The position numbers were made by a program, and so were the translations under genes. A DNA stretch of 64,000 nucleotides, taken from NCBI GenBank assembly GCA_964560525.1, contig CAZLLO010000004.1, positions 530-64,529 on the forward strand, in the 5' to 3' direction. Source of the DNA: an uncultured Candidatus Saccharibacteria bacterium (GTDB lineage Bacteria > Patescibacteriota > Dojkabacteria > SC72). The first letter of the stretch is position 1, and every line of letters starts with the position of its first letter. Shown here in pieces: positions 12,295-58,742 of this stretch. A model generated the notes under the pieces. It ran no database searches. It worked only from the letters and a program-made list of their open reading frames with translations, and was not told where the DNA came from.

Positions 12295-12933
12295 TTGAGT
12301 ATGCTAGATCAACAAATCTTAAATGAATACAACAGACTTCAGAATATCCATGGTGAACCAACTTTAGATCCCATTATTAGTGGTGGTCAGTATATCAATC
12401 CCGATATTTGTTTCGTCTTTATGAACCCTACTGGACGTAATGTCGCAGCCGAGAAATCTTGGGCATCAATTAAATCCCCATGGCTTGGTACTAAGAATAT
12501 ATGGAATATATTTTCTAAATTAAATATGTTAGACGAAATAGTATTCACAGAAATACAAAAAAGAAAACCCAAAGATTGGGATTATGATTTTGCAAATAGG
12601 GTATATGAGGATATAACCAAAAGAGGGATATATATTACTAATTTAGCTAAGTGTACACAGATTGATGCAAGGCCATTACCGAATAGTGTGTTTAAAGAAT
12701 ATTTAGATCTTTTATTTATGGAATTAGATATTGTTAAACCTAAAAAGATTGTTACATTTGGGAATCAGGTGAGTAGTATATTCTTAGATACAAATATATC
12801 TGTATCAAAGGATAGGAAGAAGGTGTTTATGCATAATAATATTCCTACATTACCTGTATATTATCCTGTGGGTCAGGGTAGAAGGAATATGGATCTTGCT
12901 GTAGAGGATATTGAGTGGTTTATGAATAACTAA
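12295..12933 (+). CDS. Uracil-DNA glycosylase superfamily protein (family not assigned)
   Basis: Beta-strand plus xxNPG motif ICFVFMNPTGRN near the N-terminus and YITNLAKC mid-protein resemble the UDG/MUG/SMUG fold. The C-terminal motif is atypical (YYPVGQGRRN). Confidence 0.4.
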   Translation: MSMLDQQILNEYNRLQNIHGEPTLDPIISGGQYINPDICFVFMNPTGRNVAAEKSWASIKSPWLGTKNIWNIFSKLNMLDEIVFTEIQKRKPKDWDYDFANRVYEDITKRGIYITNLAKCTQIDARPLPNSVFKEYLDLLFMELDIVKPKKIVTFGNQVSSIFLDTNISVSKDRKKVFMHNNIPTLPVYYPVGQGRRNMDLAVEDIEWFMNN

Positions 12934-14372
12934 AGATTCAGTATTACTCTTCCAACACCGTCTTCAACACCCTGTCCAAGATGTAATAGTGTTTGTTCAT
13001 CAAAATGTTTCCCTATGAACTGTATACCAGTAGGCATACCATTAGATAATCCAGAAGGAACTGTTAAACCAGGTAATCCAACCTCTGAGCTACCCTCTGC
13101 TAATACATCCGCTATTTCACCAAACAATGGATTATCTGCATCCTTGTCTCTAAGGGCTACCGATGGAGTAGTAGGAGCTACAATAGCATCATACTTACCT
13201 AATACATTCTCCAAATCTTCTCTAATTAACTGTCGAACCTGTTCTGATTTTCTAAAATATTCATCAGCATATCCTGCAGAGAGTGAGAATGTTCCAGTCA
13301 TAATTCTTCGCTTAGCTTCTTCTCCAAAACCTTCACCCCTGGTAGATTCGTAGAATATCTTTACATTTTCATTCCTGCTACCTTCTAAACCATATCTAGT
13401 ACCATCATATCTGGCTAAGTTAGAAGATACCTCGCTTCTACAAGTAATGGTATATACTGCCATCCCAAACTTAGGATCCATGATATGTACTTCTTCAATG
13501 ATTGCTCCTAAATCTTTCAATATCTTTATACTATTTTCAAAGTTCTTTCTAACCCCATCTTCAATATCTAAATCTAAATATTCCTTAGGTAATGCTAATC
13601 TCATTCCCTTTATCTTGTTTACATCCAATTGTGATAGGTAATCCTGTATTGGAAGTTTTGAAGATGTAAAATCATGTGGATCATATCCTGCGATTATACC
13701 TAACATATATGCTGCATCCTTAACTGTCTTAACTATTGGTCCTGGGCAATCTAGGGATGATCCCATTGCTAATACTCCATATCTTGGTACTCTTCCATAT
13801 GTTGGCTTTAAGCCTACAGTTCCACACCATGAGGAGGGTAATCTAATGGAGCCTGCTGTTTCAGTGCCTAGGGAGCCTGTACATAGGTCTGCAGCTATTG
13901 CAGCAGCTGAACCTCCACTTGATCCTCCGGGTAGTGTTTCTTTGTTCCAAGGGTTTCTAGTAGGTCCATAATATGATGTAACGGTGGATGATCCATGACA
14001 GAACTGATCGAGGTTGGTTTTACCAAGTATAATGGCTGATTCATCTAAGATTCTTTTAGTTACTGTTGATTCATATACGGGGGTATATCCATCTAGGATG
14101 TGTGATGCACATGTGGTTAAGATATCTTTTGTAGAGAATACATCTTTAACAGCTATGGGAATCCCAGCGAGTTTTTTGTCTTTTAATGTCTCAAAGTTGT
14201 TGTCAAAATCAGATGCTTTTTTTAGTGCATTCTCTGCATCTACTGTGATATATGCATTTAATTCTTTGTCTAGCTTGGAAATTCGTTGTAGGTAATAATT
14301 AGTTGCTTCTGTTGCGGATATTTCTTTTGAGAGTAGTTTTTCTCTGAGTTCTGTAATACTAAGATTTTCCAC
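12930..14372 (-). CDS. gatA: Glu-tRNA(Gln)/Asp-tRNA(Asn) amidotransferase subunit A (amidase signature family)
   Basis: Amidase signature GGSSGGSAAAIAADLCTGSLGTETAGSIRLP and overall GatA length of 480 aa. Confidence 0.85.
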   Translation of the reverse strand: MENLSITELREKLLSKEISATEATNYYLQRISKLDKELNAYITVDAENALKKASDFDNNFETLKDKKLAGIPIAVKDVFSTKDILTTCASHILDGYTPVYESTVTKRILDESAIILGKTNLDQFCHGSSTVTSYYGPTRNPWNKETLPGGSSGGSAAAIAADLCTGSLGTETAGSIRLPSSWCGTVGLKPTYGRVPRYGVLAMGSSLDCPGPIVKTVKDAAYMLGIIAGYDPHDFTSSKLPIQDYLSQLDVNKIKGMRLALPKEYLDLDIEDGVRKNFENSIKILKDLGAIIEEVHIMDPKFGMAVYTITCRSEVSSNLARYDGTRYGLEGSRNENVKIFYESTRGEGFGEEAKRRIMTGTFSLSAGYADEYFRKSEQVRQLIREDLENVLGKYDAIVAPTTPSVALRDKDADNPLFGEIADVLAEGSSEVGLPGLTVPSGLSNGMPTGIQFIGKHFDEQTLLHLGQGVEDGVGRVILNL

Positions 14373-14411: not shown

Positions 14412-15002
14412 TCAAAGAATCCATAAAATTAGAATGGATATGGTTGCTGAAACTAGTGTCCCTATGATTGTTTGCATAGGAGTATGTTTTTTTAGAATTA
14501 CTCTGGATACTGCAATAAATGGGGTAAATATGAAGATGAGTGGTAAAAAATCTGCATATGGGAAAAGGAATAAAAGGGTGAAGAATAGTAGTGTGGAATA
14601 TGTCATATGACCACTCATTTTCCAATAAAGTGTAACTATGGTTAATACACAGGTTACAGTAAAGATAGCTAATGTTACTTGAGTTAAGATGGTATCTTTA
14701 AGTAGTAGGGTTAGAAGGAACAATATTAAATAGCTAATGGTGGTAATAGTGAAATATGGTGGTCTTTCTTCTCGTTTTGTAAATTCGTAATCAGATATCT
14801 TACCCATTTTTCTTAAAATGAAGAATGGGGCTATTGTTGCTGTAATGTACAAGAAAGGGAAAAGGATTTTGTAAAAAATATTAATATCTGATATCGCAAA
14901 TGCGATTGTTGGTGTAAGTATCATTGTAAAGAAGCCGTTGAATATCTCTGATACTATTCTAGATATTTTTGTCAGTAGTTTCTTGTTCATATATCCAACC
15001 AT
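14412..15002 (-). CDS. PAP2-family membrane phosphatase
   Basis: Polytopic membrane protein with the three PAP2 motifs: KREERP (KxxxxxxRP), MSGH (PSGH), SRVILKKH (SRxxxxxH). Confidence 0.55.
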   Translation of the reverse strand: MVGYMNKKLLTKISRIVSEIFNGFFTMILTPTIAFAISDINIFYKILFPFLYITATIAPFFILRKMGKISDYEFTKREERPPYFTITTISYLILFLLTLLLKDTILTQVTLAIFTVTCVLTIVTLYWKMSGHMTYSTLLFFTLLFLFPYADFLPLIFIFTPFIAVSRVILKKHTPMQTIIGTLVSATISILILWIL

Positions 15003-15053: not shown

Positions 15054-15737
15054 TTATTCTGTTGCTCTTGTTGCTATAACAATGGCTCTTTTCCAATTTG
15101 TACCTATGGGCCAGCACGACATTAATGTTAATGTATCTTCATCCATATACTTACCTAAATACTTGGTGTCTGTAGAATCAACTATTTTCGTTTCTAGAAC
15201 TAGATATTTATATATATCACTATTGTAGCTGATATATATTGGGTCACCATTTTCTAACTCATTTAGTAGATAGAAATAGACATTGAAATTGCGTTGCTCA
15301 TAGAAGTTTACAGCGGAATGGGCAAAAAGGAATGTATTTCCTGTTTGATTTGGTAATGATGTTCCTTCTGCATGAGCGATTCCTTGACTTAATGCTGAGT
15401 TATATGCTTCTTTATCTACTGGATTTACATTGGAGATTACCTTTGCATTGGCTTTTATTTTTGGAATATATATTCCAAAATCTTTATCTACAAATATTGT
15501 TTCTGTTGACTTGGTAATTATTTTTGTGACCTCATTATTATCAGAAGAAATTTTAAGGGGGAGTGTTTCTTCCGAGGGTGTGAATACATAGCTGAAATAA
15601 GCGAAGATGAGGGGTTTGTATGTTACAAAAAGGAATGTACATCCAACGAATAGCAGGAGGATACCTACATAACGTAAGTATCCTCTTTTATTACTACTTG
15701 ATTTCGTTTCCTCTATTTCGTTTTCTTGCATAAACAT
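15054..15737 (-). CDS. Sortase family transpeptidase
   Basis: N-terminal TM anchor, conserved His region (FLFAHS), catalytic TLxTC motif (TLTLMSCWP) and downstream Arg (KRAIVIATR). Lies immediately downstream of an LPXTG substrate. Confidence 0.7.
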   Translation of the reverse strand: MFMQENEIEETKSSSNKRGYLRYVGILLLFVGCTFLFVTYKPLIFAYFSYVFTPSEETLPLKISSDNNEVTKIITKSTETIFVDKDFGIYIPKIKANAKVISNVNPVDKEAYNSALSQGIAHAEGTSLPNQTGNTFLFAHSAVNFYEQRNFNVYFYLLNELENGDPIYISYNSDIYKYLVLETKIVDSTDTKYLGKYMDEDTLTLMSCWPIGTNWKRAIVIATRATE

Positions 15738-18700
15738 ATGAGATACTGATTATTGTTATTGCTCCCACCCCTATTAAAACATATTTTAACCAGCTCCATA
15801 CGTTTGATTGAGTTTCTTCATCAGTTACACCTTTGACCTCTTCGTTTGTATTTGTGTCTGTATTATCTTCTGTAGTTTCGGTACCTTTTACTTCTTCTAC
15901 AGGGACTACTGTTGGCGTAACTGGTGTGGTAGGTGTTGCTGGAACTATTGTAACTACAACAGTTTTATCTGTAACAAATGTAGATGTGTTATCTGCAACG
16001 TCTAATGCTCTTACTGCATAGAAGTAGGTTTGTCCACATACAGGCTGTGTATCAGAATATGTAACTAATTGATTTGGTCCTGCAACTATTTCTTTTATCA
16101 ACGTAGAACTGTCCGCTGTAAAGGTTGCTTTGTCAGATCTGAATATTTGTACTTTTGCTGTCTGTCCATCATTTGCAGTTGTGAATTCCAAATTATTTGT
16201 ACAACTTGCTGTTGTTTTGGTGTAATTCAATACTGGAGATGGTTCAACTAGATCTATGATGACTGAAACTTTGTCAGAAGTTACTTCATCTGCGCCTGCT
16301 TTTGCTACTACATAGAATTCATATGTTCCATCTGAAGTTACTACAGAGCTATCAACTACACAGTTTCCACTATTTCCAATTGTATTCAATGTATACTCTG
16401 GACCAAAAGCGCCATGAGTTGTTTCGTAACATTGCACAGTAATACTTCTTGATTGAATATCTAATGCTACAAATCCAACCTCGAAGCTTGATTCGCTGTA
16501 TGGTGTTTTTGGTTGTTCAATTTCTACGGCTAGGTCGCCAGAATCTGCATATGCTCTTGTTGGCATTACTAAAGAAGTTATACCAACTAATGCAACTACT
16601 AAAAGACCTAGAACTTTCATCATTTTCTTTTTCGGACTAAATATTATGAATGCAAGACCAAGTAACATTGTACATATTGCGCCAATTGTTAATATTGTGC
16701 TTGCACCTGTATCTGGGAGTGTTTGTTCATCTGTTATACCAAGAACTTGCCCTTGCTCAACTGGTTCAGTGATGTTAACGTCTGTGCTTGCAAAGAATCC
16801 TGTTGCTGCACTTCCCAAAGTTCTGTTATCAGTTAGGGTTACTCCCTCTGTCCATGCGAGATCTTTGTACTTTCCTGCGTCTAATGTGTCAGAGATATTA
16901 CCAACATATGTCAGTGTTATAACTTCTCCTTCAAGCATCTTCCCAAGATTCCATTTTCCTGGGCTTGCATAGGTTGGTTCGGTCGTTATACTTTGTGCTT
17001 TCAAATTACCTCTAATATTGGAAATTGCTGTCCATGAACCTACTTGGTATTTGATACCGGCAGGTGGAAGATCTACAACTTTTACATTTTCAATTATATA
17101 ATTTCCACCATCATCTTGTGATTCAGGTGCAGTTACGATCAAGGTGTAAAGGACATTGCTTCCTGCTACCAAGCTTACGCCACCAGCATTATTTGCTTTT
17201 GCTATTTGTAATTCTGGTACAATTATTCGGTTTGTACATACTACTTCAATATTTTCGCCATTACCGACATAGAACGTACCGGTTCCCATAAGTGATGGTC
17301 TTTCATTTATTACATGACATCCTAGTGAAAGGAATCCATCTTTTTCTAGCTCATTTATAGAGTAAGGACCTGCATCTAAGTTACTAAATGTAGCTACCTT
17401 ATTATTTGAGGCATCGTTTGTATCACTAATGGTTTGTATATTTGTAAGATCATTATTTAGTGTTACATTGAATTCTGTATCAGAGTAGACACCTTCACCA
17501 ATATAGTCTGCGTTAACAACATCCTTGTACACTGTTATGGTTCCTGGCTGAGCTGTATTTGTTATTGTACATGTAACATCATCTTCTGGTGCCAATGTAA
17601 CCACGTTTCCATTGAGAACGCCTTCTTTATCACATGACCATTGTGAAGCAGTGAATCCATCAGGTCCTTCTTCAGAAAGTGTATATGTTTGTCTTGGTGT
17701 TACTACATGGAATGCTCCTTCATCTCCTACAGCTGAGAATCCATATCTGTCTCCTGTTGCACTTAATATCCAATTGCTTGAAAAACCATCTGAATTGTAT
17801 GCATTTTCAACAGACTTCACTAATTTCAAAGTAGGGACATATGTTAGAGAGACATTTGCTGTTGCTGAAGCACTGTCTGTATTCTCTTCATCATCCATTA
17901 CTGTTGCAGTAAATACGTTAGTATGTATTGCTGGTGCAACACCTGCTGGGACTGAGAATGTATGTTCGAATGAACAACTTGAATTTCCTGCTAAGACTGT
18001 TCCTACGTTACAATCTAAATCTCCTGTTAAATCTCCGAATTTGTCATCAACTAAGTCCATAATCATTACACTTTCTGCAGTATTGTTTTGTATTGTGAAT
18101 GTAAATAATACATCTGCACCTGTTTCAGGTACCGATTCCACAGAAGCAGTCTTAGTTACAGTGATATCTGGATTTACATTGTAGAATGAGATAACCTCGT
18201 TGTCATGATTTCCAGTTGTATTTGTTTCATCATCTTGAGCTTCTACAACAAAGACATTCTCATGATCTGCACTTCCTGCATCTCCAGAGATGAACTTTGT
18301 AAGAGTGAATGAACATGAAGCATTTTGAGCTAATGTTGTTCCTACTTTACATGTATCATTTCCATCAAGAGTACCAAATACACTATCGTTGAGGTATGTG
18401 ATATTTACACTTTCTGAGCTTGTATTCTTTACAGTATAAGTGAATGTTACATTCTGACCTGTTTCAGGGATATCGTTATCATTTGCTGTTTTATTTACTT
18501 CAATTGTAGGAAAGTGATCTATATCTGTATTAGTAATTGTACATGTCTTAGATTCTCCGATTCCTATTGTTCCAGAACAGTTATTTCCTATGGATTGTGT
18601 ATAGTTACTTGTGTTGTATAGCTCTGTTACATTATATGATCCTGCATTTAGTGTTAGGGTTGTTCCTGCTTCGGATCCCGCAAAAGATGGGTTAGAAACG

Positions 18701-21700
18701 TTTGTTCCTGACACCAGCATTTGGAAGTTTGCTGCAACGCTATTTGTGTCATTTGTATTGTTTACAACGTGTTTTACAACTGTTAATTGTGGCGCAATAT
18801 CATTGTTAGTTATTGTACATACAAGATTTTCGCCTTCATTAAGTGTTACTGTGCCACCAAGTACACTTGGGCACTTTGTATCACCAGTTATTGAAACAAA
18901 TGAGTAACCGAAGAGGCCAGCTTCATTTAATGTAATTGCTTCATTAGCATTTACATTTAATGTTTGTCCTGATGTTACACTTGTTCCTCCAACTGTTAGT
19001 CCAAAGTCATTTGCTGTAGCGTTCCCTCCATGGTTGTTATTTACTATCTTTGTAAGTGTAATTGTTGGTGCAACGTCATTATTGGTTATTGTACATATCG
19101 CATCCTGCCCCTCATTTAAAATAAGAGGATTGGATAGGGTGGCACCGGTCATATAATCAACACAGCTCCACGTGCCCTCTGTATATCCAGCCAAATCTGC
19201 TTCCGAAAGCATATATGATGTGTTTGAAAGTGCGGTTGGAGTAGCGGTATATGTTGTTGTATTTCCAGATGCGGTGCCAGAATCAAAGGATAGTGCCGAA
19301 CCATTCATCTTAATATCAAAGTCTCCAATTACGGCATTACCACCATTGTCGTTAACAACATTTTTAATGACTGTTAGGGTTGGTGCAATATCATTATTAG
19401 TTATTGTACATACTGCTGTATCACCGACACTTAAAGTTATTGTGCTTCCTGTTACAGCTATTCCTCCATTCTTTACACATGACCATGGCCCTGAAGTATA
19501 TGCTGCTCCAGTGCTATTTTCATTAAGTGTGTATGTTCCAGCTTTAAATGTTGAATCACTGACAACATCTGTATGTCCTGAAGCTCCTTGTCCGCTAATA
19601 ATTCCAGCACTTCCGCCATCTGCGCTTAATGTCCAGTAGGATTCAGTTTCATTTCCATTATTATCTGTAACTAAAATCTTGTCTAAGACAAGAACAGGTG
19701 CAATATCATCATTGGTTATCGTACATGTGACATCTTCATCCAAATGAAGAGTAAGTTTATCACCTAGGAGAGACCCACCATCGCATGACCAATTACTTGC
19801 TACATATCCTGATGGACCAGATTCACTTAATGTATATTCTACTCCTGCTTTTACAGTATGAAATTCATTAGCATCTCCTTCATCCATGAATCCACCATCT
19901 GAGCCAGAGGCTGTGAGATCCCACATATGTGCAGTTTCATTCCCACCATTGTCTGTAGTTAATGTTTTAATCAATTTCAAGGTTGGAGCTATATCATTAT
20001 TTGTAATTACACAAGTATCCCCTGCATGTATATTCTCGCAATTGGAGTATGTAGTTTCATAGCCTGCATACGAAGGTTCAGTAATATCATACTGGAAACC
20101 TTCTAAGACTGTTATATCGTTAGTTCCGTCAGATTCGAATGGTATCACTGTCCCATTCTCCACTTGGAACCCAAAGCTATCTTTGTTTAGTGTTGATCCC
20201 CCATTATCATTGGTTAATATTTTAACCACATGTATTGTTCCTAGGCTTCTGGTATTTGTAAATGTACATACTAAATCTTGTCCTGAAGTTAGAATTACGG
20301 ATTGACCTTCAACAGCACCATAGCTTGTTCCATTGCATGTTAGGTTTGTTACATTGAAGTTAGCTTTTTGATCTTCAGAGATTGTGTATGTACCTGGGTT
20401 TACAGAAACGGTAGATCCTGTGGAATGATTTCCATTTCCATTGATATCCCATGTCCAATCAGTTGCACCAGTTATATCTATTACACCATCTGCATTTGTA
20501 TCTACATTCTTAAGGACAGTAATTGTTGGATATTTAACGTTTATGAAGTTATTCCCAAAATCATTTTCCCCAGGGAGTAATGTTATATCAAGATATTCAG
20601 CAGTTGGGTATATTTTGTACCAACCAGAACCAATAGTAAGAGCCTCTCTTAATTGATATGTGCCCGAAACTAGATTACTAAAGCCATACGCTCCGTTGAT
20701 ATCTGTTGTTGTTTCGTCGATTTTAATCCCATTTTTGTATAGCTCAATTGTCCAACCAAATACACCAGTTCTATCGTTAGTTGCATAGTCGCCATCTGCG
20801 TCATTGTATTTGTGTCCACCGATAGCTCCTCTCATGACATTAACGAAAGTACAAGTTACTGATTCTCCAGCTGATATATTTATTGCGGTATTTAAACTTC
20901 CATCAGTACATGAGGAGGTTGAATCCCATCCACTAACAGCATTCTCTGTTACAGAGTATGTTGCAGGTAGAAGATTTGTGAATGTTCTTGTATTTGATCC
21001 GAATACACTTCCATCATCGGTTAAGGAGAAATTTGTTAATCCTATACCCGAGGTATTGAATTCAAAAGATTGTATGCTATTTGGATTTGCATCTTTTACA
21101 ATTGTAAGTGATGCATACTTTGTATTAGTTATTGTACATATTGCACTTTGTCCATATGTTAGATTCCCGTTACATCCTGAACTGTAAGTTACATTAAAGC
21201 TACTTCCTGGGTCTACTTCTGTAATTGCATAATTAGATCCTGGGACTACAAATATTGTATTACTTCCATCTGTTTCAAATGGTACTGCTATTCCTCCATC
21301 TACCTTGTAGCTGAAGTTACTAAAAGAAGTACTATCTCCAAGCAAAACTTTTTCAATAGTTAATGTTGGGAGTTTTCGGTTTGTAATTGTACATGTTTTG
21401 GTTTCATTAATTCCGACAACAACATTCGTACATGTATTTGAAGTTTGACCCCATCCGGCAGGTACAGTTTCTGTAACAGAATATGTTCCTGCTGATACAG
21501 AATAGTCTTTATCTGTAGAATCTGAGATTGTTCCAGTTGTAACACCAAATATTGCGCCTGCTGATGCAGAGGCATTAATGTCAAATAACGTTGTATCTCC
21601 TGCAGGTAACGTTGTTTTTTGTACTATCAAATGGCTTCTTGAGATACCATTGTAGTAGCTAGTATCACTTGCAGAGAGAGTACCACTTGTGACGGTTGCA

Positions 21701-23532
21701 GTATTTGTAAATTGTCCAGCCATTACAGTACCTGATGCGGTACATGTCATTGAAGCCCCAGATGCAAGTGATGTGCTTGGACATGTTATTGTTTCTGCAG
21801 GATTATCCGTTACAGTGATGTTGTTTAATGTTGTATTCCCAGTATTCTGTACTACATATTGCCATGTTACAGAATCTCCGACATAGAGATTGTCTCCAGG
21901 AGCTGCAGTAATATCTTGATTGTTTGTCTTTTTAATAATACTGATTGCAGGTCTTTCTACTAATACTGAAGAAAGGTGACCAACCAAAAATGCCGAGTTG
22001 TCTTTTTGTTCCTCAGTTATGAATGCAGAGAGTGCTGATCCACTTGGGTACTCACTAACAAAACCATCAATAACTAATGTATATTGAACATCATCAATTA
22101 CAAATACTTGTGTACCATAACTGTTTGGGAATGTGACTTTGTCATCACATGGTGTGCCTGATATTTGGTAGGCAGGACAGTAGTATATGTTTCCATTAGA
22201 AGTTTCTTCTATTGCGAAACCATATGTTAAAACTTGGTTTGCAATATCTGGTCTATTAAAATCTAGTGTTATTTGTAATGTTGCACCTGTAGCGGCTGTA
22301 CCGGCCTGTGTTCCCCAGTTCATGTGGGTGAGCATACCGAGATAGAAGGTGTTTCCTTCGTTAAATGACTGTGCTCCACTATTTGTAAATTTTAATCCAC
22401 TCTTGGTTGATCCAGCTGGGGTTCCCCACCTTATTTCATTTGTATTTATTCCACTGTAACCACTTCCACCAGATATTGATGTCCATATTCCTGTAACGGA
22501 GGTCATAGCATATTTATCTAAAGGATTGTCTACTAGGACAGGAGGTGTTATTGGAATAGAGTAGTGTACTTTTACTTGCAAAGCATCTAATGAAGCAGTA
22601 CTTCCACCGCTTGTTGCGTCAACTTTTACCTTAAAGCTTGTGTTAAAATCACTTACTGTCCAAGTCTCTCCCCATAAATCAGAGATGCTTCCAAGTGTAA
22701 TTGTTGTATCTGAGCTAGTAAGTGATGTTGTTTTTGTAGAAGAATATGAATCAGGAATGCTGTTTGATTGATTCCACAGAGAAACATCAAAATTCCTTCC
22801 GCCAGTTTTTCCTTCTAAGAATACCTCAATACCCGTGATTGTAGCGTTTGAAGGTATAGATATGTCTGGGAAACTGTATTCAGCATAATCATTACTACTG
22901 TCAAAGGTAGCATATTGATTATCAGAAACCCATCCATTATTGTATGTTCCAACGCTGTTATTATTTTCAGTTTTATCTGCAGAGACTAAAATAAAGAGTG
23001 TGAAGTGATTCAAGTCCTCAACCTTAACAGTATTTCCTTGATCTACAACAGGATTACTAACCTCTTGAACATTATCCAATAACTCACTTCTATTCTCAGC
23101 ATATACAACCTTTGTATTATTAGAACTAGAAGGAAGTGTTAAGTCATATTCAAAAGTACCATCCATCATACTAGTATTAATATCATATGCCTTGTTTGAT
23201 ACAGCTCCTGTAGCATCTACCTCTTCATTTGTAAGAGTGATTTCATTAATGGATAGGGTAGAGGGATTTGAAGGAAGTTTTGTGAATGTCACAGTAACAT
23301 CACTATTTTGTGGAGCAACATAGGTCTCTCCTAAAACAACAACATTGGATGTAACTGGGGGATTCCCATTTGTAATCCATGTGGGATCTGAAATTCCAAC
23401 ATCAAGAATATCTTGGCTATTATCCGTAGAGATGAGATCATCTATAGCCATTACAGATGGTGCAAATGAATAACAGGTAAGAATAACAGAAGTAAATATC
23501 TTCCCAATCACGCTCAAAGATTTCTTTTTCAT
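15694..23532 (-). CDS. Giant cell-surface repeat protein (2612 aa as one ORF): N-terminal signal peptide, many about 100-aa Ig-like/CnaB/DUF11-type repeats, LPDTG sorting signal at codons ~2272-2303, then an in-frame C-terminal 309-aa module with its own signal peptide and TM anchor
   Basis: Uninterrupted minus-strand ORF. Signal peptide MKKKSLSVIGKIFTSVILTCYSFAPSVMA. Repeats end in ...CTITNNDIAP(T/Q/V)L. One SdrD-B/CnaB-like unit (GGHKYNDADGDYATNDRTGVFGWTIELYKNG). LPDTG + hydrophobic stretch + KKK at 16624-16719. Confidence 0.75.
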   Translation of the reverse strand: MKKKSLSVIGKIFTSVILTCYSFAPSVMAIDDLISTDNSQDILDVGISDPTWITNGNPPVTSNVVVLGETYVAPQNSDVTVTFTKLPSNPSTLSINEITLTNEEVDATGAVSNKAYDINTSMMDGTFEYDLTLPSSSNNTKVVYAENRSELLDNVQEVSNPVVDQGNTVKVEDLNHFTLFILVSADKTENNNSVGTYNNGWVSDNQYATFDSSNDYAEYSFPDISIPSNATITGIEVFLEGKTGGRNFDVSLWNQSNSIPDSYSSTKTTSLTSSDTTITLGSISDLWGETWTVSDFNTSFKVKVDATSGGSTASLDALQVKVHYSIPITPPVLVDNPLDKYAMTSVTGIWTSISGGSGYSGINTNEIRWGTPAGSTKSGLKFTNSGAQSFNEGNTFYLGMLTHMNWGTQAGTAATGATLQITLDFNRPDIANQVLTYGFAIEETSNGNIYYCPAYQISGTPCDDKVTFPNSYGTQVFVIDDVQYTLVIDGFVSEYPSGSALSAFITEEQKDNSAFLVGHLSSVLVERPAISIIKKTNNQDITAAPGDNLYVGDSVTWQYVVQNTGNTTLNNITVTDNPAETITCPSTSLASGASMTCTASGTVMAGQFTNTATVTSGTLSASDTSYYNGISRSHLIVQKTTLPAGDTTLFDINASASAGAIFGVTTGTISDSTDKDYSVSAGTYSVTETVPAGWGQTSNTCTNVVVGINETKTCTITNRKLPTLTIEKVLLGDSTSFSNFSYKVDGGIAVPFETDGSNTIFVVPGSNYAITEVDPGSSFNVTYSSGCNGNLTYGQSAICTITNTKYASLTIVKDANPNSIQSFEFNTSGIGLTNFSLTDDGSVFGSNTRTFTNLLPATYSVTENAVSGWDSTSSCTDGSLNTAINISAGESVTCTFVNVMRGAIGGHKYNDADGDYATNDRTGVFGWTIELYKNGIKIDETTTDINGAYGFSNLVSGTYQLREALTIGSGWYKIYPTAEYLDITLLPGENDFGNNFINVKYPTITVLKNVDTNADGVIDITGATDWTWDINGNGNHSTGSTVSVNPGTYTISEDQKANFNVTNLTCNGTSYGAVEGQSVILTSGQDLVCTFTNTRSLGTIHVVKILTNDNGGSTLNKDSFGFQVENGTVIPFESDGTNDITVLEGFQYDITEPSYAGYETTYSNCENIHAGDTCVITNNDIAPTLKLIKTLTTDNGGNETAHMWDLTASGSDGGFMDEGDANEFHTVKAGVEYTLSESGPSGYVASNWSCDGGSLLGDKLTLHLDEDVTCTITNDDIAPVLVLDKILVTDNNGNETESYWTLSADGGSAGIISGQGASGHTDVVSDSTFKAGTYTLNENSTGAAYTSGPWSCVKNGGIAVTGSTITLSVGDTAVCTITNNDIAPTLTVIKNVVNDNGGNAVIGDFDIKMNGSALSFDSGTASGNTTTYTATPTALSNTSYMLSEADLAGYTEGTWSCVDYMTGATLSNPLILNEGQDAICTITNNDVAPTITLTKIVNNNHGGNATANDFGLTVGGTSVTSGQTLNVNANEAITLNEAGLFGYSFVSITGDTKCPSVLGGTVTLNEGENLVCTITNNDIAPQLTVVKHVVNNTNDTNSVAANFQMLVSGTNVSNPSFAGSEAGTTLTLNAGSYNVTELYNTSNYTQSIGNNCSGTIGIGESKTCTITNTDIDHFPTIEVNKTANDNDIPETGQNVTFTYTVKNTSSESVNITYLNDSVFGTLDGNDTCKVGTTLAQNASCSFTLTKFISGDAGSADHENVFVVEAQDDETNTTGNHDNEVISFYNVNPDITVTKTASVESVPETGADVLFTFTIQNNTAESVMIMDLVDDKFGDLTGDLDCNVGTVLAGNSSCSFEHTFSVPAGVAPAIHTNVFTATVMDDEENTDSASATANVSLTYVPTLKLVKSVENAYNSDGFSSNWILSATGDRYGFSAVGDEGAFHVVTPRQTYTLSEEGPDGFTASQWSCDKEGVLNGNVVTLAPEDDVTCTITNTAQPGTITVYKDVVNADYIGEGVYSDTEFNVTLNNDLTNIQTISDTNDASNNKVATFSNLDAGPYSINELEKDGFLSLGCHVINERPSLMGTGTFYVGNGENIEVVCTNRIIVPELQIAKANNAGGVSLVAGSNVLYTLIVTAPESQDDGGNYIIENVKVVDLPPAGIKYQVGSWTAISNIRGNLKAQSITTEPTYASPGKWNLGKMLEGEVITLTYVGNISDTLDAGKYKDLAWTEGVTLTDNRTLGSAATGFFASTDVNITEPVEQGQVLGITDEQTLPDTGASTILTIGAICTMLLGLAFIIFSPKKKMMKVLGLLVVALVGITSLVMPTRAYADSGDLAVEIEQPKTPYSESSFEVGFVALDIQSRSITVQCYETTHGAFGPEYTLNTIGNSGNCVVDSSVVTSDGTYEFYVVAKAGADEVTSDKVSVIIDLVEPSPVLNYTKTTASCTNNLEFTTANDGQTAKVQIFRSDKATFTADSSTLIKEIVAGPNQLVTYSDTQPVCGQTYFYAVRALDVADNTSTFVTDKTVVVTIVPATPTTPVTPTVVPVEEVKGTETTEDNTDTNTNEEVKGVTDEETQSNVWSWLKYVLIGVGAITIISISYVYARKRNRGNEIK
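16624..16719 (-). other. LPXTG sortase sorting signal (LPDTG, 22-residue hydrophobic segment, KKK) internal to the giant ORF, followed directly by ATG ATG
   Basis: Codons CTC CCA GAT ACA GGT ... AGT CCG AAA AAG AAA ATG ATG AAA GTT read directly from the reverse complement of 16561-16719. Confidence 0.65.
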
Positions 23533-30618: not shown

Positions 30619-32500
30619 TTTGTTTATGCTTAAATTTCTTTACTAAGAAGTATACCAAATATCCTAAACCAAGAAATGAAGCCAACGAAAGTATCTTTAC
30701 CATTACCTGCATGTATACAGGAATAAATATATCTAAGTCGGATTCCAGTAGGAGTTCCTTTTTGTAATCCATATTTGAAAAGGTAATATTTACGTAAGAA
30801 TTTGAATAGCTTCCAGAATTTGGAATATTAAATTGTAATGTAGCGCTTTGTTTTGGGAGTACAATTTGTGTATTTATATTATTTACTGGATCTACATATC
30901 TTTGTAAGTTCTCAAAGCTGGATTGAGAAATAGCGTAATCTGAAATAGCAATATTCCCCGTGTTAGTAATGTTTATTAACGTTTTAAAATATTTGCTTAA
31001 TATATTATTACTATCAAAAACCAATTGAGCTTCCACAGAGAAATTTGGTACTACTTCTTCTTGAGAACTAGAAGTAACTTTAAAATCATTATCATTGTAA
31101 AAAGTAAGTTTTGGAGCTACAGAGGATTTTCCTCTTACTAGTATGGCTATATGGTCATAGAATTTATCCTTGTAGAGAGATTTGGAAGCGTAGTCCTCTA
31201 AGAAAGGATCTAATGTTAACCATTGGTTTTGAGTATAGTCATATACTTCTACCCAGTAGTTGTAAAAACCATCCGATGTATATCCAGAAATATTGGAAAC
31301 ATACCCAATAACTTGTCTTGCAGGTATACCATATTTTCTAAATACCGTTATTAAGAAATCGGTGTAATCAGAGGGTGTTACTTCGTTGGGATTTGAAACG
31401 AGATTATCAAATCCAACTCTACTGTCTGTTATTATTCCACTAGTTAGTTCCTTTTGTGGATTCAGGCGATCTATAACGTATGAATACAGATATTTGTATA
31501 CTAATTCTTGTGTGTCTTTAGAAACATCTTGAATATTAGAGAAACCCTCAGGGATGTTTAATTTCTTCTCTCTCAAATAATTATCAATCCTCGTAAATTC
31601 ATTCTTTTGTGTAACACTCCAGTATCCAGTATTCTGGGTTAAAAATGCGTCTAAAGCAGAAGTATCCTCAGAAGCATCATGCTTTAGTATGTATCCTTTA
31701 ATCATGCAATCAGTAGTTTTCTGAGGGGCTAATGTATATTGAAATATGTAATTTCCATCTTCATCCTGCTTGGCTATATTGGGAAGTGGGCTGATTTCAT
31801 CCCAGATAATCGTTTGATTTGCCCCATCAGCTGGTAATATCAACTCAAATGTCTGATTCTCGTCTTCTAATGAGTTTGTGAAGGTTTTTGATACTTCGAA
31901 TTTGTATGAGATTTGTTTCCCAAAAAGTATGGATAGTTTGTTGTGTATAGGTTTGAGAATAGTAATCTGATAGTTATCTCCAATACTTTTTATGCTTTGT
32001 ACAGTATCTGAAGTCCATAGTGGTTCTCCAAGGGTTTTTGAATATGTTACAGTAATACTTTTTGTCGTTGTATCTTGTACTGAGGATGGTATATTGTACG
32101 AATCTGTACTAGAAGAGGTTCGTGTATATATCAATCTTAGTTTTAATGGTGTATTAGATCGTACAACTGCATTGTTAAGGTCTAAGAGTACATCAGTAGC
32201 TCCTGTCCTTTGATGGTTAGTGCAGGAGTATTCTTTGCTTGTATTGTAGTTGTAACATTTGACCTTGAGATTCTCTTCTGGGATTGTTGCAGTATAGTAA
32301 GATATAACCCTTGAAGAAGAGGAAGATATTGTAAGAATAGCTTCAGTGCTGATGTTTGTTTCTGTAATATTGTGAACAAAATCACTAGTAAGAGTAAAAG
32401 AATCTACAGCGGATACTTTGGAGGCGCAAAGAAGAGAAATTACAAATACAAGGCTAGATAGCGACAGAATTTTCTTTAAATAGCCATTCAAATCTCTCAT
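30611..32500 (-). CDS. Transglutaminase-like domain surface protein, catalytic triad apparently degenerate; signal peptide and C-terminal TM
   Basis: TGase-core-like block DYTDFLITVFRKYGIPARQVIGYV...NYWVEVYDYTQNQWLTLDP. The Cys of GxCxxFA is replaced (TDFLITVF), the His of HAW is replaced (NYW), Asp is retained (LDP). Confidence 0.5.
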   Translation of the reverse strand: MRDLNGYLKKILSLSSLVFVISLLCASKVSAVDSFTLTSDFVHNITETNISTEAILTISSSSSRVISYYTATIPEENLKVKCYNYNTSKEYSCTNHQRTGATDVLLDLNNAVVRSNTPLKLRLIYTRTSSSTDSYNIPSSVQDTTTKSITVTYSKTLGEPLWTSDTVQSIKSIGDNYQITILKPIHNKLSILFGKQISYKFEVSKTFTNSLEDENQTFELILPADGANQTIIWDEISPLPNIAKQDEDGNYIFQYTLAPQKTTDCMIKGYILKHDASEDTSALDAFLTQNTGYWSVTQKNEFTRIDNYLREKKLNIPEGFSNIQDVSKDTQELVYKYLYSYVIDRLNPQKELTSGIITDSRVGFDNLVSNPNEVTPSDYTDFLITVFRKYGIPARQVIGYVSNISGYTSDGFYNYWVEVYDYTQNQWLTLDPFLEDYASKSLYKDKFYDHIAILVRGKSSVAPKLTFYNDNDFKVTSSSQEEVVPNFSVEAQLVFDSNNILSKYFKTLINITNTGNIAISDYAISQSSFENLQRYVDPVNNINTQIVLPKQSATLQFNIPNSGSYSNSYVNITFSNMDYKKELLLESDLDIFIPVYMQVMVKILSLASFLGLGYLVYFLVKKFKHKQNG

Positions 32501-33188
32501 ATTTTCTTAATATTTGTTTTATTACAGGAGTCTTAGGTGTAATTCCATAGTTTAAAATTATCTTATCCCAGTCTAGTTTCTCAGGTTCATTAACAATTTT
32601 GTAATATGGATTTCGGACAGTTTCCTGCTTGGCATTTTTTCTAATAATATAATAGGCTAATCCATTCTTCTCATCAAGGACTACGTGTGGATGAGCATTA
32701 ATACTTAGATATTCTGCGAAGATAAGGTTGGAATTTTGGCGGGTATTTACAACAACTGCACTATATCCAGCGGGTACTATGACCTTTTGCTCTTTTTTCG
32801 CAGTAATCCTTATAATTCGATTGTCTTTGGGAGATCGATATCTTTGTAACAGGATAGTAGCTCCACCATATATAATATCTATTAACCTAGGATATCTGAG
32901 ACACTTAGTAGCTCTGGTTTTTACAAATTCTATCCCAGCTAAGTTTGGTTTTAGTACATAGAAATTTATCTTTAAATCTTTTGAAGCGTATAGATTGTCA
33001 AAGTCTAATCCTTTGTATTTCTTGTAAAAGACTTCAGGGCATGATAATTCTTTGTTAAGAAGTTGTGCTCTTACATCATCTATTGAAATGGAAATTGTCT
33101 CCTGGAATTTCAAATCCTTAGCCTGCAAATCTTCTCCATCATAAATGAGGGGAAAACCAGAAGTTTTCTTAAGGTCTATTTTTGCCAT
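32454..33188 (-). CDS. Cupin-fold protein resembling cupin-type phosphoglucose isomerase, metal-ligand His residues not conserved
   Basis: Blocks IIYGGATILLQRY, KVIVPAGYSAVVVNT and NLIFAEYLSINAHPHV align by eye with the GKGGMLLQ / VVYVPPYWAHR / IFLAIYPADAGHDY regions of archaeal cPGI. The TKGHFHA metal site reads KTRATK here. Confidence 0.35.
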   Translation of the reverse strand: MAKIDLKKTSGFPLIYDGEDLQAKDLKFQETISISIDDVRAQLLNKELSCPEVFYKKYKGLDFDNLYASKDLKINFYVLKPNLAGIEFVKTRATKCLRYPRLIDIIYGGATILLQRYRSPKDNRIIRITAKKEQKVIVPAGYSAVVVNTRQNSNLIFAEYLSINAHPHVVLDEKNGLAYYIIRKNAKQETVRNPYYKIVNEPEKLDWDKIILNYGITPKTPVIKQILRKYERFEWLFKENSVAI

Positions 33189-37667: not shown

Positions 37668-39131
37668 ATGAATTCACAAATACAAAGGAAATTAGAAATA
37701 TTACCCCATAAACCAGGAGTATATAGATTCCTAAATAAAAAAGGGGAAATAATGTACATAGGTAAAGCAATCGACCTATACAATCGTGTAAGGTCATATT
37801 TTGCTAAAGACATCTCTGATCGTCCAAGAATTGTTCAAATGATGCCAATGGTAGAAGATTTTGAAATTACCGAAGTAAATAATGAAATAGAAGCATTAGT
37901 ACTAGAATCAGCATTAATTAAAAAATATGATCCCAAATACAATTCCGATCTAAAAGACGGAAAATCATATGCATGGATATATGTTTCAACAAAAGATAAA
38001 TTCCCAACTGTAGAAATTGTTAGAACTTTAAACAAGAAGGAATACAGCAGAGGAGAATTATTTGGTCCATATCCCAGTGGATTAGCTGTAAAACGGATCT
38101 TTACATATCTTAGAAAGTTGTATCCTTTCTGTAACTGTTGCCAAGAGGGTTCCAAAGAATCCCTCTACTACCACCTAGGCCTATGTCCTGGTCCATATCA
38201 AGGTCATATATCAGAAAAAGAATACAGAGGGAATATTAATGAAATCATTAAGTTCCTAAAAGGTCGGAAGAAGGGACAAATACAAGAATTAGTTAAAGAG
38301 ATGAAACAGTATTCAGCAAGTAAACAGTATGAAAAAGCAGCAAATCTTAGGGATAGAATTAACGATTTGGAATACTTAGGGGAAAAGATTGAGTTTACAT
38401 ACTTTGATACAGAGGAGGAATATACACAAAAACGGAAGAATCTTTTAAAGAAGAATTTTGATGGGCTTCGAACAGAATTAGGGCTTTCAAAGCTAGAAAG
38501 AATCGAATGCTACGACATCTCCAATACACAAGGGAAAGAAGCCTATGGCTCTATGGTAGTTGCACAAAACGGAGAAATAAATAGGGGAGAATACAGAATA
38601 TTTAAAATACAAGGACAGGATACTCCAAATGATCCCGCTATGTTAAGTGAAGTGCTAAAAAGGAGGTTTGCAAACAAAGAATTTACAACATGGCCCGATA
38701 TTGTGCTTATCGATGGAGGTAAGTCACAGTTAGGTGTGGTAAAGAAAAACATTCCAGATGATATTTTCATATTAGGTATTTCAAAGGGAAAACGTTTAAA
38801 AAGGAAAGGTGGAAGACTTCTTGATGAGTTCTGGGGTATGTATGAAGATGATGTTAAACAACTTGATATACAGAACAAAAGCATATTGATAGATCTAAGG
38901 GATGAAGCACATAGGTTTGCTATAACCCACCATAGGAAAGCAAGGTCGAAAGAGAGCCAAAGGTCTATACTGGAATCTATACAAGGTATTGGTCCTAAAC
39001 GAAGGAAAGAGTTGATGACAGTATTTGGTAGTATAGAAAATATCAAAAAAGCCTCAGTTGAAGAATTAGCAACAGTTTTGAAGAATAATGAAATAGCAAA
39101 AGAAGTGTATAACTATTTTAATATTTCTTAG
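37668..39131 (+). CDS. uvrC: Excinuclease ABC subunit C (short form, 487 aa)
   Basis: GIY-YIG motif GVYRFLNKKGEIMYIGKAIDLYNRVRSYF and C-terminal HhH QGIGPKRRKELMTVFGSIENIKKASVEELA. Confidence 0.8.
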   Translation: MNSQIQRKLEILPHKPGVYRFLNKKGEIMYIGKAIDLYNRVRSYFAKDISDRPRIVQMMPMVEDFEITEVNNEIEALVLESALIKKYDPKYNSDLKDGKSYAWIYVSTKDKFPTVEIVRTLNKKEYSRGELFGPYPSGLAVKRIFTYLRKLYPFCNCCQEGSKESLYYHLGLCPGPYQGHISEKEYRGNINEIIKFLKGRKKGQIQELVKEMKQYSASKQYEKAANLRDRINDLEYLGEKIEFTYFDTEEEYTQKRKNLLKKNFDGLRTELGLSKLERIECYDISNTQGKEAYGSMVVAQNGEINRGEYRIFKIQGQDTPNDPAMLSEVLKRRFANKEFTTWPDIVLIDGGKSQLGVVKKNIPDDIFILGISKGKRLKRKGGRLLDEFWGMYEDDVKQLDIQNKSILIDLRDEAHRFAITHHRKARSKESQRSILESIQGIGPKRRKELMTVFGSIENIKKASVEELATVLKNNEIAKEVYNYFNIS

Positions 39132-40209
39132 AGCTTTGTGGCTGAATTTCTTCTAGAATGTAGTCAACAAAAGGGTTCTGGAGTACATTTGAATCAATTA
39201 TATATACGAGTTTGTTGTAAGTATTTGGGATTACTACTATCTGATCTGTAATTGATTTTGTTCCTATTGTTCCTCTCAGCCCAGTTCCCCATCGAGTTGA
39301 GATTACGACAGTATTAATTACGTTCCATTTCTCTTCGCTGCTTGTATTAAGCTGAGCCACATAATCGTCTACAAAATAATCTAAAGCTTTTGTTCCTGAT
39401 TTTCCGATAGGGGTTAAATATATCTTTTCGTTAGTTCCTATCTTACTCATGAGAAGTTGTTGTTCACTGGAGTTATATATGGAGACCTTGTAGGATAGTA
39501 TATATTCTTTTGGTATTGGCAATATCCATGGAAAATCTGGGAGTAAATCTTGTGCATCTTCATCTGTTAATAAAAGTTCCCTTTCTGTTTTTAATGCAAC
39601 TCTGTCGGCTAATCCGCTTTGGGCTTGTGTTGTTGAGATTGTCTCGTACCAGACATCGTTATATTTAGAATAGATTCTCAACCCTTGATTCTCTTTGGTC
39701 CAGTATTGTCCATATTCCTTGTCTTCCGATTCCATAGATACCATCTGTACAAATGTCCAGCCATATGTAGGAAGTTTTTCATTATAATATTCAAATACTT
39801 CATCAATATTAGTTCCATTTGGTAGCCTATACCCAGAGCTTCCACTTGCTAGAAATGTTTTTACAGAATCTAAATCCATACTGTTTGCAAATATGAATGA
39901 GGAATTGGGATAGGCAGGCATGTTTTCAATACCAATAATGTATGTCTGTTCCTGGATCTTTTCTCTATTTCTAAGTTTATTTATATATACTACAGCAAGA
40001 TATGCTATGGCTAGAAATATGGCTATTAAGCCAACATATATAGCAAGTTGAGGAATATGCACATTTCTCTTCCTTGAGATTGAGGAATTCTTTTTCTTAA
40101 ATATTTGAAATTTCGGTTTACGTATTTGTCTTAGGTTGTTCTTCTTTACAGGCATGTAGATATTCTTATCTTTTCTGGTGGTATGTTTTATTCTTCTGAG
40201 GGGCTTCAT
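39118..40209 (-). CDS. Hypothetical membrane-anchored protein (basic N-terminus, one TM, extracytoplasmic domain)
   Basis: TM LAIYVGLIAIFLAIAYLAVVYI. No recognised motif. Confidence 0.5.
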   Translation of the reverse strand: MKPLRRIKHTTRKDKNIYMPVKKNNLRQIRKPKFQIFKKKNSSISRKRNVHIPQLAIYVGLIAIFLAIAYLAVVYINKLRNREKIQEQTYIIGIENMPAYPNSSFIFANSMDLDSVKTFLASGSSGYRLPNGTNIDEVFEYYNEKLPTYGWTFVQMVSMESEDKEYGQYWTKENQGLRIYSKYNDVWYETISTTQAQSGLADRVALKTERELLLTDEDAQDLLPDFPWILPIPKEYILSYKVSIYNSSEQQLLMSKIGTNEKIYLTPIGKSGTKALDYFVDDYVAQLNTSSEEKWNVINTVVISTRWGTGLRGTIGTKSITDQIVVIPNTYNKLVYIIDSNVLQNPFVDYILEEIQPQSSKKY

Positions 40210-41299: not shown

Positions 41300-42100
41300 T
41301 TAAAGCAGTTTTAATTTAATCATTGCAGCCTTTGTTGCCTCTTCTCCAATCTTAATCAATTCTGTTGGATCTTCTGCTATTGCTGTAAGTGGAAGATTAG
41401 GATCTACGCTAAGATTCAGTGCAATATCAGCGTTTTTAACACTTTCCATAGAAGAGTTGTAAAGGGAAATATCAATCATTGCACTAATAACATCAATAAA
41501 GGAGAGCTTCTCGATATCAAGCTTCCGAGGGAATTTTTCTGAATAGAGATTAACAGCTATGACTTTTTGTGCCCCCATTTCTCTTACAACATTAACTGGA
41601 ACAGGATTAGTATTCCCCCCATCTATTAGTACCATATCATTGTATTTCACAGGTCTTAGAAGTAATGGGATTGAGATACTTGCCCTAATTGCTTCTAAAA
41701 GATTTCCCTCTTTTAAAACTACTGGTTGTGCAGTATTTAAATCTGTAGCTATTGCTGCAAATGGAATTTTTGTATCCTGTATTAATGTGTTTCTCCCAAT
41801 ATACCCATCTAAAAGATTAAGGACTTTTTCACCTTTAAAAATGCTTGATTTTAGGGAAGGATCAAAAAAAGCATTAAACATGTCTTTGTAATCACTAGAA
41901 TATGCCAAATCCTCAATCATCTTAATATCTTTTGTGAGCGCATATAGTCCACCTACAACGGAACCAATACTTGTACCAGCAATATAGTCGATTGCAATAT
42001 TATTCTTCTCCAATTCTTTAATAACACCTATATGTGCAATACCTTTAGCTGCACCAGCTCCTAAAGCTAGGCCAATTTTCTTTCTAAATAAATGGAACAT
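41300..42100 (-). CDS. Patatin-like phospholipase
   Basis: GxGxxG (GLALGAGAAKGIAHIG) and GxSxG (GTSIGS) patatin motifs. Confidence 0.75.
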   Translation of the reverse strand: MFHLFRKKIGLALGAGAAKGIAHIGVIKELEKNNIAIDYIAGTSIGSVVGGLYALTKDIKMIEDLAYSSDYKDMFNAFFDPSLKSSIFKGEKVLNLLDGYIGRNTLIQDTKIPFAAIATDLNTAQPVVLKEGNLLEAIRASISIPLLLRPVKYNDMVLIDGGNTNPVPVNVVREMGAQKVIAVNLYSEKFPRKLDIEKLSFIDVISAMIDISLYNSSMESVKNADIALNLSVDPNLPLTAIAEDPTELIKIGEEATKAAMIKLKLL

Positions 42101-57977: not shown

Positions 57978-58742
57978 CTACACTATTGTTCCCCAATCAA
58001 GAGTATTTGTTAATATTTCAGCCTTGTTCTTTCTAACAATAACCATATATTCAAACATAACACTGTTACCACCATTCTGTGTATGTACAGACCATTCATC
58101 CTCATCAATGTAAGCTTTTCCATTATCATCGACAACCTGGCATTCGATACATATAACCATGCCATCGACTAGTAATTCTTCTGTGCCCTTTCTACCATAT
58201 GAAAGAATTTCTGGATCTTCATGAAGAGATTTACCAATACCATGGCCAGCATACATCTTTAAAACATTAAAACCACTATCTTTAGCAGCTTTCTCCATTT
58301 CATACCCCAGATCTCCTGTATGATTACCAACTACAGCCTTAGTAATTGCATTCTCTACCGCAGCTCTACCAGCCTCTAAAAGCTTTACATTTTGTTTTGA
58401 AGGTATTCCTACACTCCAGGTCCAACAGTGATCTGTAAAATATCCTTTATATATGATTCCCATATCTATGGAAACTAAATCACCTTTTTTAAGGGGTGTA
58501 TTACTGGGGATACCATGTACGGCAACATCGTTAACAGATATACATGTATTATATTTGTAATCTCCGACAGTTTTGAAACTAGACCTTACACCATATTTTG
58601 CACATAATTGTCCTGCCAGAATATCTAATTCTAAGGAAGTAATACCCTCATGGATGTTTTCTCCTAGTTGTTTAAGAATATCAACAGAAATTTCTGTTGC
58701 TTCTCTCAGCATTAATTCATCTTTTGGATTCTTTATAATCAT
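57978..58742 (-). CDS. map: Methionine aminopeptidase type I
   Basis: Pita-bread fold metal ligands: SIDMGIIYKGYFTDHCWTW, GHGIGKSLHEDP, C-terminal EY. Confidence 0.85.
   Translation of the reverse strand: MIIKNPKDELMLREATEISVDILKQLGENIHEGITSLELDILAGQLCAKYGVRSSFKTVGDYKYNTCISVNDVAVHGIPSNTPLKKGDLVSIDMGIIYKGYFTDHCWTWSVGIPSKQNVKLLEAGRAAVENAITKAVVGNHTGDLGYEMEKAAKDSGFNVLKMYAGHGIGKSLHEDPEILSYGRKGTEELLVDGMVICIECQVVDDNGKAYIDEDEWSVHTQNGGNSVMFEYMVIVRKNKAEILTNTLDWGTIV

Follow-up and report, generated by a model that had tools for sequence, protein, structure and literature searches.

A conserved in-frame fusion sets a sortase sorting signal and a predicted internal signal peptide between a giant adhesin and a second exported protein in uncultured Patescibacteria

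Sortase substrates are assumed, in annotation too, to have their sorting signals strictly at the C-terminus. In a stretch of 64,000 nt from an uncultured Candidatus Saccharibacteria bacterium (GTDB lineage Patescibacteriota, Dojkabacteria; assembly GCA_964560525.1, contig CAZLLO010000004.1, positions 530 to 64,529; hereafter the window), such a signal, built around the pentapeptide LPDTG, lies within an open reading frame (ORF) of 2612 codons and runs in frame, with no stop codon, into two ATG codons, a segment resembling a signal peptide and the rest of a module of 309 amino acids (aa). The locus raises the question whether an adhesin gene and the gene behind it are truly one, and, if so, how a single translation product could give rise to two exported proteins. 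The parts of the frame, together with the sortase gene that follows it, are listed here from the N-terminus of the product onward.

15694..23532, minus strand: polyprotein ORF of 2612 codons (ORF list and translation), comprising adhesin, sorting signal, signal peptide and module
23446..23532, minus strand: N-terminal Sec-type signal peptide of the adhesin, MKKKSLSVIGKIFTSVILTCYSFAPSVMA, with n-, h- and c-regions and cleavage site VMA/I, read from the translation
16720..23445, minus strand: mature adhesin, ending in QVLGITDEQT, delimited by Pfam and NCBIfam domains
up to 16720, minus strand: C-terminal end of the adhesin, QGQVLGITDEQT, from the translation
16741-16749, minus strand: VLG of QVLGITDEQT-LPDTG
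16705..16719, minus strand: LPDTG sortase motif, from the translation
16636..16704, minus strand: hydrophobic segment of the sorting signal (first transmembrane segment, TM1), ASTILTIGAICTMLLGLAFIIFS, 23 aa, from the translation
16624..16635, minus strand: charged tail PKKK, from the translation
16618..16635, minus strand: junction CCG AAA AAG AAA ATG ATG (P K K K M M)
16618..16623, minus strand: ATG ATG (MM), from the translation
16546..16623, minus strand: internal signal peptide (TM2), MMKVLGLLVVALVGITSLVMPTRAYA, with a predicted signal peptidase I cut after AYA; its counterpart in stand-alone homologues is their N-terminal signal peptide, with which it is collinear
from 16617, minus strand: KVLGLLVVALVGITSLVMPTRAYA directly after MM, then DSGDLAVEIEQPKTP, from the translation
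15937..16545, minus strand: module ectodomain of two beta-sandwich (FnIII/Ig-like) domains with four nearly invariant cysteines (AlphaFold2, Foldseek, conservation)
15808..15936, minus strand: disordered module stalk, rich in Thr, Pro and Glu (module aa 230-272), with two EEVKG motifs
15697..15807, minus strand: C-terminal transmembrane anchor of the module with its basic tail, WSWLKYVLIGVGAITIISISYVYARKRNRGNEIK, from the translation and a modelled helix (module aa 275-307)
15054..15737, minus strand: sortase gene (Pfam PF04203, E 1.4e-21) with the catalytic-cysteine motif LTLMSC

The internal LPDTG lies at residue 2272 of 2612, and 309 residues follow in frame beyond the sorting signal, 283 of them past the cut predicted between residues 26 and 27 of the module. 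The ORF, 7.8 kb long, is otherwise without interruption, the standard genetic code yields long ORFs throughout the window (GC content ∼35%), and the exact 2612-aa product is already recorded as a single called gene on an NCBI contig of 65,194 bp. An LPxTG motif followed by a hydrophobic segment occurs only this once across all six frames of the window. The KKK tract has two roles: it forms the charged tail with which the sorting signal ends, and it is the n-region of the signal peptide behind it. A preliminary description of the window, made from the letters alone, had reported LPDTG, a hydrophobic stretch and KKK in frame with ATG ATG, a signal peptide and a 309-aa module carrying a Thr/Pro linker and a transmembrane anchor; every detail proved correct when read on the minus strand, where the hydrophobic stretch measures 23 aa and the C-terminal segment of the module, past the linker, is WSWLKYVLIGVGAITIISISYVYARKRNR. 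The same is true of the TGA TGA that it had read in the +1 frame over ATG ATG, which in translation gives RKRK followed by two stops.

The comparison of orthologous loci that the preliminary description had proposed found the frame kept in each of three close relatives from other assemblies (L014, 80% identity, on a 91-kb contig; L015, 75% identity; and P0008, a protein of 2384 aa). Their junctions, all in frame, read PKKKMLKILG, PKKKMIKALS, and PKKKMMKVLG, respectively. At the DNA level, for which L014 and L015 were compared, these two and the window all have CCN AAA AAG AAA ATG, with identical A-tract lengths and identical frame, and many synonymous third-position differences flank the junction on both sides. 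P0008, compared at the protein level, is encoded on a 47-kb contig from a different JGI sample, where DUF192 and UvrD precede the fused gene and a sortase, a gene of ∼190 aa, GatA and UDG follow it.

Homologues of the module are of two kinds, either stand-alone proteins of ∼320 aa with an N-terminal signal peptide (e.g., P0004, from Daviesbacteria) or C-terminal parts preceded in frame by LPxTG (P0001 and P0005). When the GTDB species genomes were searched with a three-sequence alignment (a single-protein query gave no matches), all seven loci found were fused; they carried the labels Dojkabacteria (two), Saccharibacteria, Parcubacteria, and Moraniibacteriota, with two short contigs binned elsewhere, and their junction sequences were mutually unrelated. 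A profile search of 1.84 billion representative proteins retrieved 1159 module homologues at E ≤ 1e-3, of which 518 also passed E ≤ 1e-30. In the 150 best of the 1159, the module formed the C-terminus of proteins of 400-3052 aa in 98 cases and stood alone in 52, and in 95 of the 98 fused representatives two hydrophobic segments came after an LPxTG-like motif, within 110 aa. A sorting-signal layout that recurs to this extent is not a chance motif, and, judged by these predicted proteins, fusion is the commoner state in the module family, across hundreds of related uncultured bacteria.

The junctions of some lineages bear on where translation of the module begins. Between TM1 and the predicted cleavage site, L007 and L017/L001 contain no ATG, GTG, or TTG, and in L013 the sole start-type codon is a TTG deep in the h-region. 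As no usable start codon is present at these junctions, the module can there come only from the fusion. Sister lineages have I-K-N-L or T-L-I-K in place of Met-Met, again without a start codon; thus, the Met-Met of the window is lineage-specific and not required. That the fusion is real, conserved and widespread is shown by this comparison of predicted genes, and the polyprotein, one of three explanations offered in the preliminary description, is strongly supported by the frames of the relatives, the profile search and the junctions lacking a start codon.

The segment behind the junction has the parts of a type I signal peptide: an n-region (KKKMMK), an h-region (VLGLLVVALVGITSLV), and PTRAYA/D, with small residues at −3 and −1. 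In alignment it matches the signal peptides at the N-termini of stand-alone homologues column for column, and alignment and conservation together show that the internal segment, as predicted, shares its descent with true N-terminal signal peptides. At −1 of the predicted cut, alanine is present in 91 of 99 fused and 50 of 52 separate sequences, and the spectrum at −3 (A/V/T/I) is alike in both. This equal conservation indicates that selection keeps the signal peptidase I site irrespective of whether it lies near an N-terminus or not. A second cut, after AYA, would most likely be made by signal peptidase. The preliminary description, in which sortase cleavage alone was to release the module, has to be corrected accordingly, as sortase on its own would leave the module unreleased.

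Upstream of the junction, the first 2270 aa have the domain content of a surface adhesin according to Pfam, with seven SpaA_2 (prealbumin-like) domains plus DUF7507, SpaA_4, SpaA, and SdrD_B. A choice-of-anchor K domain (NCBIfam NF038131; 99 bits against a cut-off of 30) was observed at aa 345-514, ahead of the SpaA-type repeats. The adhesin resembles proteins with canonical C-terminal LPXTG signals (PF00746/TIGR01167) in its LPxTG, its hydrophobic segment of ∼23 aa and its Lys/Arg tail; like them, it also has an N-terminal signal peptide and a sortase gene next to it. Thus, pentapeptide, hydrophobic segment with positive tail, and sortase gene are all present, whereas the extreme C-terminal position and a PF00746 score above the cut-off are lacking; unlike the canonical signal, that of the window is located mid-protein with 309 in-frame residues beyond it. 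Strict LPxTG is nonetheless found in 93 of 100 fused homologues (six earlier matches counted in), and a V[LV]G motif lies upstream of it, mostly four residues before, in 92 of 95 fused adhesins. The fact that both motifs are kept in the fused forms argues that sortase still acts there.

The 2612-aa ORF is in our judgment likely to encode a membrane-inserted polyprotein that is cut by sortase (LPDT/G) and by signal peptidase (AYA/D); its topology, the two cuts and what becomes of the products are inferred from the sequence. The adhesin of ∼2270 aa would be exported through Sec by means of its N-terminal signal peptide until the hydrophobic segment after LPDTG halts transfer, so that PKKKMMK stays in the cytoplasm. 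The next hydrophobic segment would then re-enter the membrane as an internal signal peptide and export the 283-aa module, whose C-terminal helix would halt transfer again, giving a primary product with three membrane passes. A cut by signal peptidase I after AYA would convert the module into a type-I membrane protein with the new N-terminus DSGDLAVEIEQPK and with two FnIII-like domains on a disordered stalk, while the sortase encoded downstream would cut LPDT/G and move the adhesin onto the cell wall. A hairpin of ∼54 aa (G...KKKMMK...AYA) would remain in the membrane.

Several observations weigh against this assignment. The Pfam Gram_pos_anchor profile (PF00746) matches aa 2269-2303 below threshold (17.4 against 20 bits), and the sortase scores below the curated cut-off of every named class, the best NCBIfam match being class C with 72 against 160 bits. 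Both cleavages are deduced rather than observed, and an ATG is kept at the junction in this lineage (MM in the window, ML in L014, MI in L015), by which some independent initiation would be possible. Finally, the module has no assigned function, and a selective reason for the fusion is therefore not established.

The alternative state, in which adhesin and module are separate genes, also occurs, and it sheds light on how the two states are related. In L003/L004 (Daviesbacteria), L023 (Gottesmanbacteria), L020, L024, and L025, the adhesin ends with LPxTG, a hydrophobic segment and LRRKYD followed by the stop codon. In the five of these loci whose DNA was read (L003, L020, L023, L024, and L025), the ATG of the module lies 8-11 nt ahead of the adhesin stop, in the +1 frame, and the arginine codons of the sorting-signal tail (AGG AGA or AGG AGG) are at the same time the Shine-Dalgarno sequence of the overlapping module gene. 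A one-base insertion or deletion turns such overlapping genes into a fusion, or back. Parsimony on a rough UPGMA tree of the module required at least 24 switches of state among the 150 representatives (mean of 43 with shuffled states), which indicates that fusion and separation happened many times; some of the stand-alone calls counted here stem from short contigs and may be artefacts.

That separate genes exist elsewhere bears directly on whether the window sequence is correct. With one A fewer, the adhesin would end ...SPKKK before a double TGA and the module would be an ATGA-coupled gene, and the junction is indeed only one base away from the coupled-gene layout that other lineages do have. 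However, the same A5-G-A4 tract and frame recur in L014 and L015 despite many nearby synonymous differences, the syntenic P0008 protein has the same junction, distant relatives are fused without any A-run (e.g., L009, with TTC AAG AAG TTA AGC TAT), and the ORF is unbroken over its remaining length. The chance of a homopolymer or assembly error, which the preliminary description had considered, is thus negligible, the identical tracts in L014 and L015 and the like junction of P0008 at the protein level refuting it. Its remark that a single A separates the locus from an adhesin, a stop and a coupled gene is right as a statement about evolution, as the 8-11-nt overlaps in relatives illustrate, and the junction should not be "corrected" as a frameshift. 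The A-rich tract with TGA TGA in the +1 frame, and a local hairpin downstream of it (z = −2.5), could also be taken for a programmed +1 frameshift site, at which a terminated adhesin (...PKKK-stop) and the read-through fusion would both be made. This, too, had been proposed and is highly improbable: neither a slippery site nor a downstream structure is conserved, as the junctions of fused members are diverse and the stem is not kept in L014, for which reason the hairpin was dropped as a candidate stimulator. Moreover, off-frame stops are expected everywhere at 35% GC, and the zero frame already gives the complete conserved architecture with no shift needed.

Two other explanations accept the fusion and differ from the polyprotein cut twice in what becomes of it. 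The module might chiefly stem from independent initiation at ATG ATG, the fused frame being a tolerated by-product; an ATG at the junction codon is kept in the window, L014, L015, and P0008, the sequence upstream is A-rich and unstructured, and the genome hardly uses Shine-Dalgarno sequences (9 of 46 ORFs). Still, L007 and L017 retain the whole architecture without a start codon, no Shine-Dalgarno-like sequence precedes the junction ATG, and the full-length frame would be translated anyway and would need processing, which makes this an unlikely account. Alternatively, LPDTG might be a relic at which no cut occurs, leaving the adhesin tethered to the membrane within a three-pass protein, as could be supposed from the extreme C-terminal position of canonical sorting signals and from the Pfam anchor score below its cut-off. 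A relic would decay, whereas strict LPxTG persists in nearly all fused forms (93 of 100), accompanied by the V[LV]G motif upstream (92 of 95), and the sortase gene remains adjacent. We therefore assign to the absence of a cut at LPDTG a probability that is low, and lower than that of internal initiation.

What advantage a polyprotein cut by sortase and signal peptidase might confer can be addressed only tentatively. Fusion could be an adaptation that lets a second exported protein be expressed where no internal ribosome-binding site exists, with signal peptidase separating the cistrons in lineages poor in Shine-Dalgarno sequences and apparently rich in leaderless genes, in which case the repeated one-base switches would track the mode of initiation; or co-insertion could make the module an obligatory 1:1 assembly or anchoring partner of the adhesin for sortase. 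Either proposal is speculative, and we consider it rather doubtful. A Shine-Dalgarno-like motif precedes only 9 of the 46 window ORFs with a length of 120 aa or more. Such motifs were counted before ∼19 of 198 ORFs in fused-type loci and 12 of 58 in separate-gene loci, a crude count over non-independent lineages to which L002 is an exception. That fused loci go together with sparse Shine-Dalgarno use is not supported by these numbers, which give a weak hint only. That initiation is often leaderless or Shine-Dalgarno-independent in this genome is suggested by a TATAAT-like hexamer 5-12 nt before the ATG of many window ORFs, for example

32454..33188, minus strand: ORF preceded by a TATAAT-like hexamer
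37668..39131, plus strand: ORF preceded by a TATAAT-like hexamer
39118..40209, minus strand: ORF preceded by a TATAAT-like hexamer
41300..42100, minus strand: ORF preceded by a TATAAT-like hexamer
57978..58742, minus strand: ORF preceded by a TATAAT-like hexamer

The module itself matched no family in Pfam or NCBIfam. An AlphaFold2 model built with 51 sequences (mean pLDDT 82.9) consists of two beta-sandwich domains (module aa 31-123 and 132-225), a disordered stalk (230-272) and a C-terminal helix (275-307). Foldseek matched it in the PDB solely to tandem FnIII/Ig-like proteins (e.g., cytokine receptors, FN5-6 of DCC/neogenin, RbmA, and transglutaminase barrels), and no enzyme fold was among these matches. 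Cysteines 65, 88, 141, and 196 as well as P128, D152, T155, and S214 are invariant or nearly so. A role as a pilin-like sortase acceptor with a YxK lysine is not supported, K136 being replaced by arginine in 16 of 151 sequences and no lysine being invariant; the lack of conservation of the residue after the signal peptidase site also counts against an acceptor. The features of a sortase-assembled pilus are likewise wanting, the sortase falling below the class C cut-off and the module having no invariant lysine. In the disordered stalk, a [VIT]LG motif was observed in 133 of 150 sequences, compared with 2 of 150 for a folded control segment, whereas the stalk of the window has EEVKG twice in its place. 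The [VIT]LG and V[LV]G motifs could be stalk or wall-crossing motifs, or else processing motifs.

The closest precedent is provided by the streptococcal IgA1/Zmp proteases, in which, according to a passage in PMC3518915 (citing Bender & Weiser 2006 and Takenouchi-Ohkubo et al. 2006), LPXTG is followed by two membrane-spanning segments, the second of which was proposed to function as an additional signal peptide and to contain a further signal peptidase site. As far as that passage goes, they have in common with the window a non-C-terminal LPXTG, two hydrophobic segments, a second signal peptidase site and, hence, a hairpin of sorting signal and signal peptide. In Zmp, however, LPXTG is near the N-terminus, with a short peptide before it and the functional protein after it, whereas in the window an adhesin of ∼2270 aa precedes it and a different, self-anchored protein follows. 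Furthermore, a zinc metalloprotease with HEXXH lies downstream in Zmp, compared with a tandem FnIII-like fold with no detected homology in the module. The IgA1/Zmp proteases are thus an analogue, and the window protein is not a member of that family. We know of no relatives in which the parts of Zmp are encoded as two separate genes. Bacterial membrane polyproteins that are cut at an internal signal peptide are exemplified by the FbcH cytochrome b/c1 precursor of Bradyrhizobium. It resembles the window protein in that one ORF contains an internal signal sequence at which signal peptidase parts two mature proteins, and differs in that these are unrelated proteins of a respiratory complex, made without a sortase step. 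By name and description, the NCBIfam family midcut-by-XrtH (NF033207) comprises mid-protein sorting signals for a sortase-like system, which is, unlike the window, the exosortase/PEP-CTERM system of Gram-negative bacteria. Membership of the window protein was rejected; its sole match is weak (22.7 against 45 bits) and at aa 1690-1742, far from the junction. A literature search on sortases in the candidate phyla radiation (CPR), Patescibacteria and Saccharibacteria, on internal LPXTG, and on LPXTG polyproteins found no description of this architecture, and a mid-protein sortase signal joining adhesin and module is apparently undescribed.

These giant adhesins will be missed or wrongly described by LPXTG predictors and annotation pipelines that accept the motif only at the C-terminus. 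In the module family, which is found in uncultured Patescibacteria, most members have the sorting signal mid-protein and a second exported protein after it, and the dozens of fused and unfused pairs amount to a natural experiment on what sortase and signal peptidase do with a transmembrane hairpin that they share. The partner protein, in which a stalk and a transmembrane anchor follow two FnIII-like domains, is conserved and always encoded between adhesin and sortase. Its place there marks it out as a candidate part of the surface-attachment apparatus of organisms whose way of life is to adhere to other cells.

The order adhesin, module, sortase is kept in fused and separate states alike. In 22 of 25 related loci, the gene immediately after the module encodes a sortase homologue; in L012 one is 3.6 kb away, and the contigs of the remaining two end too early to judge. 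In the window, the first 44 nt of the sortase gene overlap the end of the polyprotein frame, and the product of the sortase gene may be a member of an unclassified group of CPR sortases. The contig index searched had no entry with the exact sequence of this sortase. Two short contigs with the fused cassette (L011 and L013) are found in metagenome-assembled genomes labelled Gammaproteobacteria and Bdellovibrionales; they are probably mis-binned, because every other named locus belongs to Patescibacteria. Two genes of the window beyond the sortase gene are listed here.

14412..15002, minus strand: gene for 196 aa, next after the sortase gene; its PAP2 match is weak, at 22.8 bits (cut-off, 27.2)
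12933..14372: GatA, in one 90%-identity cluster with proteins named Candidatus Dojkabacteria, candidate division WS6 or Patescibacteria group

More distant loci contain no counterpart of the 196-aa gene, and the syntenic contig of P0008 has a 192-aa gene without a recorded Pfam match in the same position.

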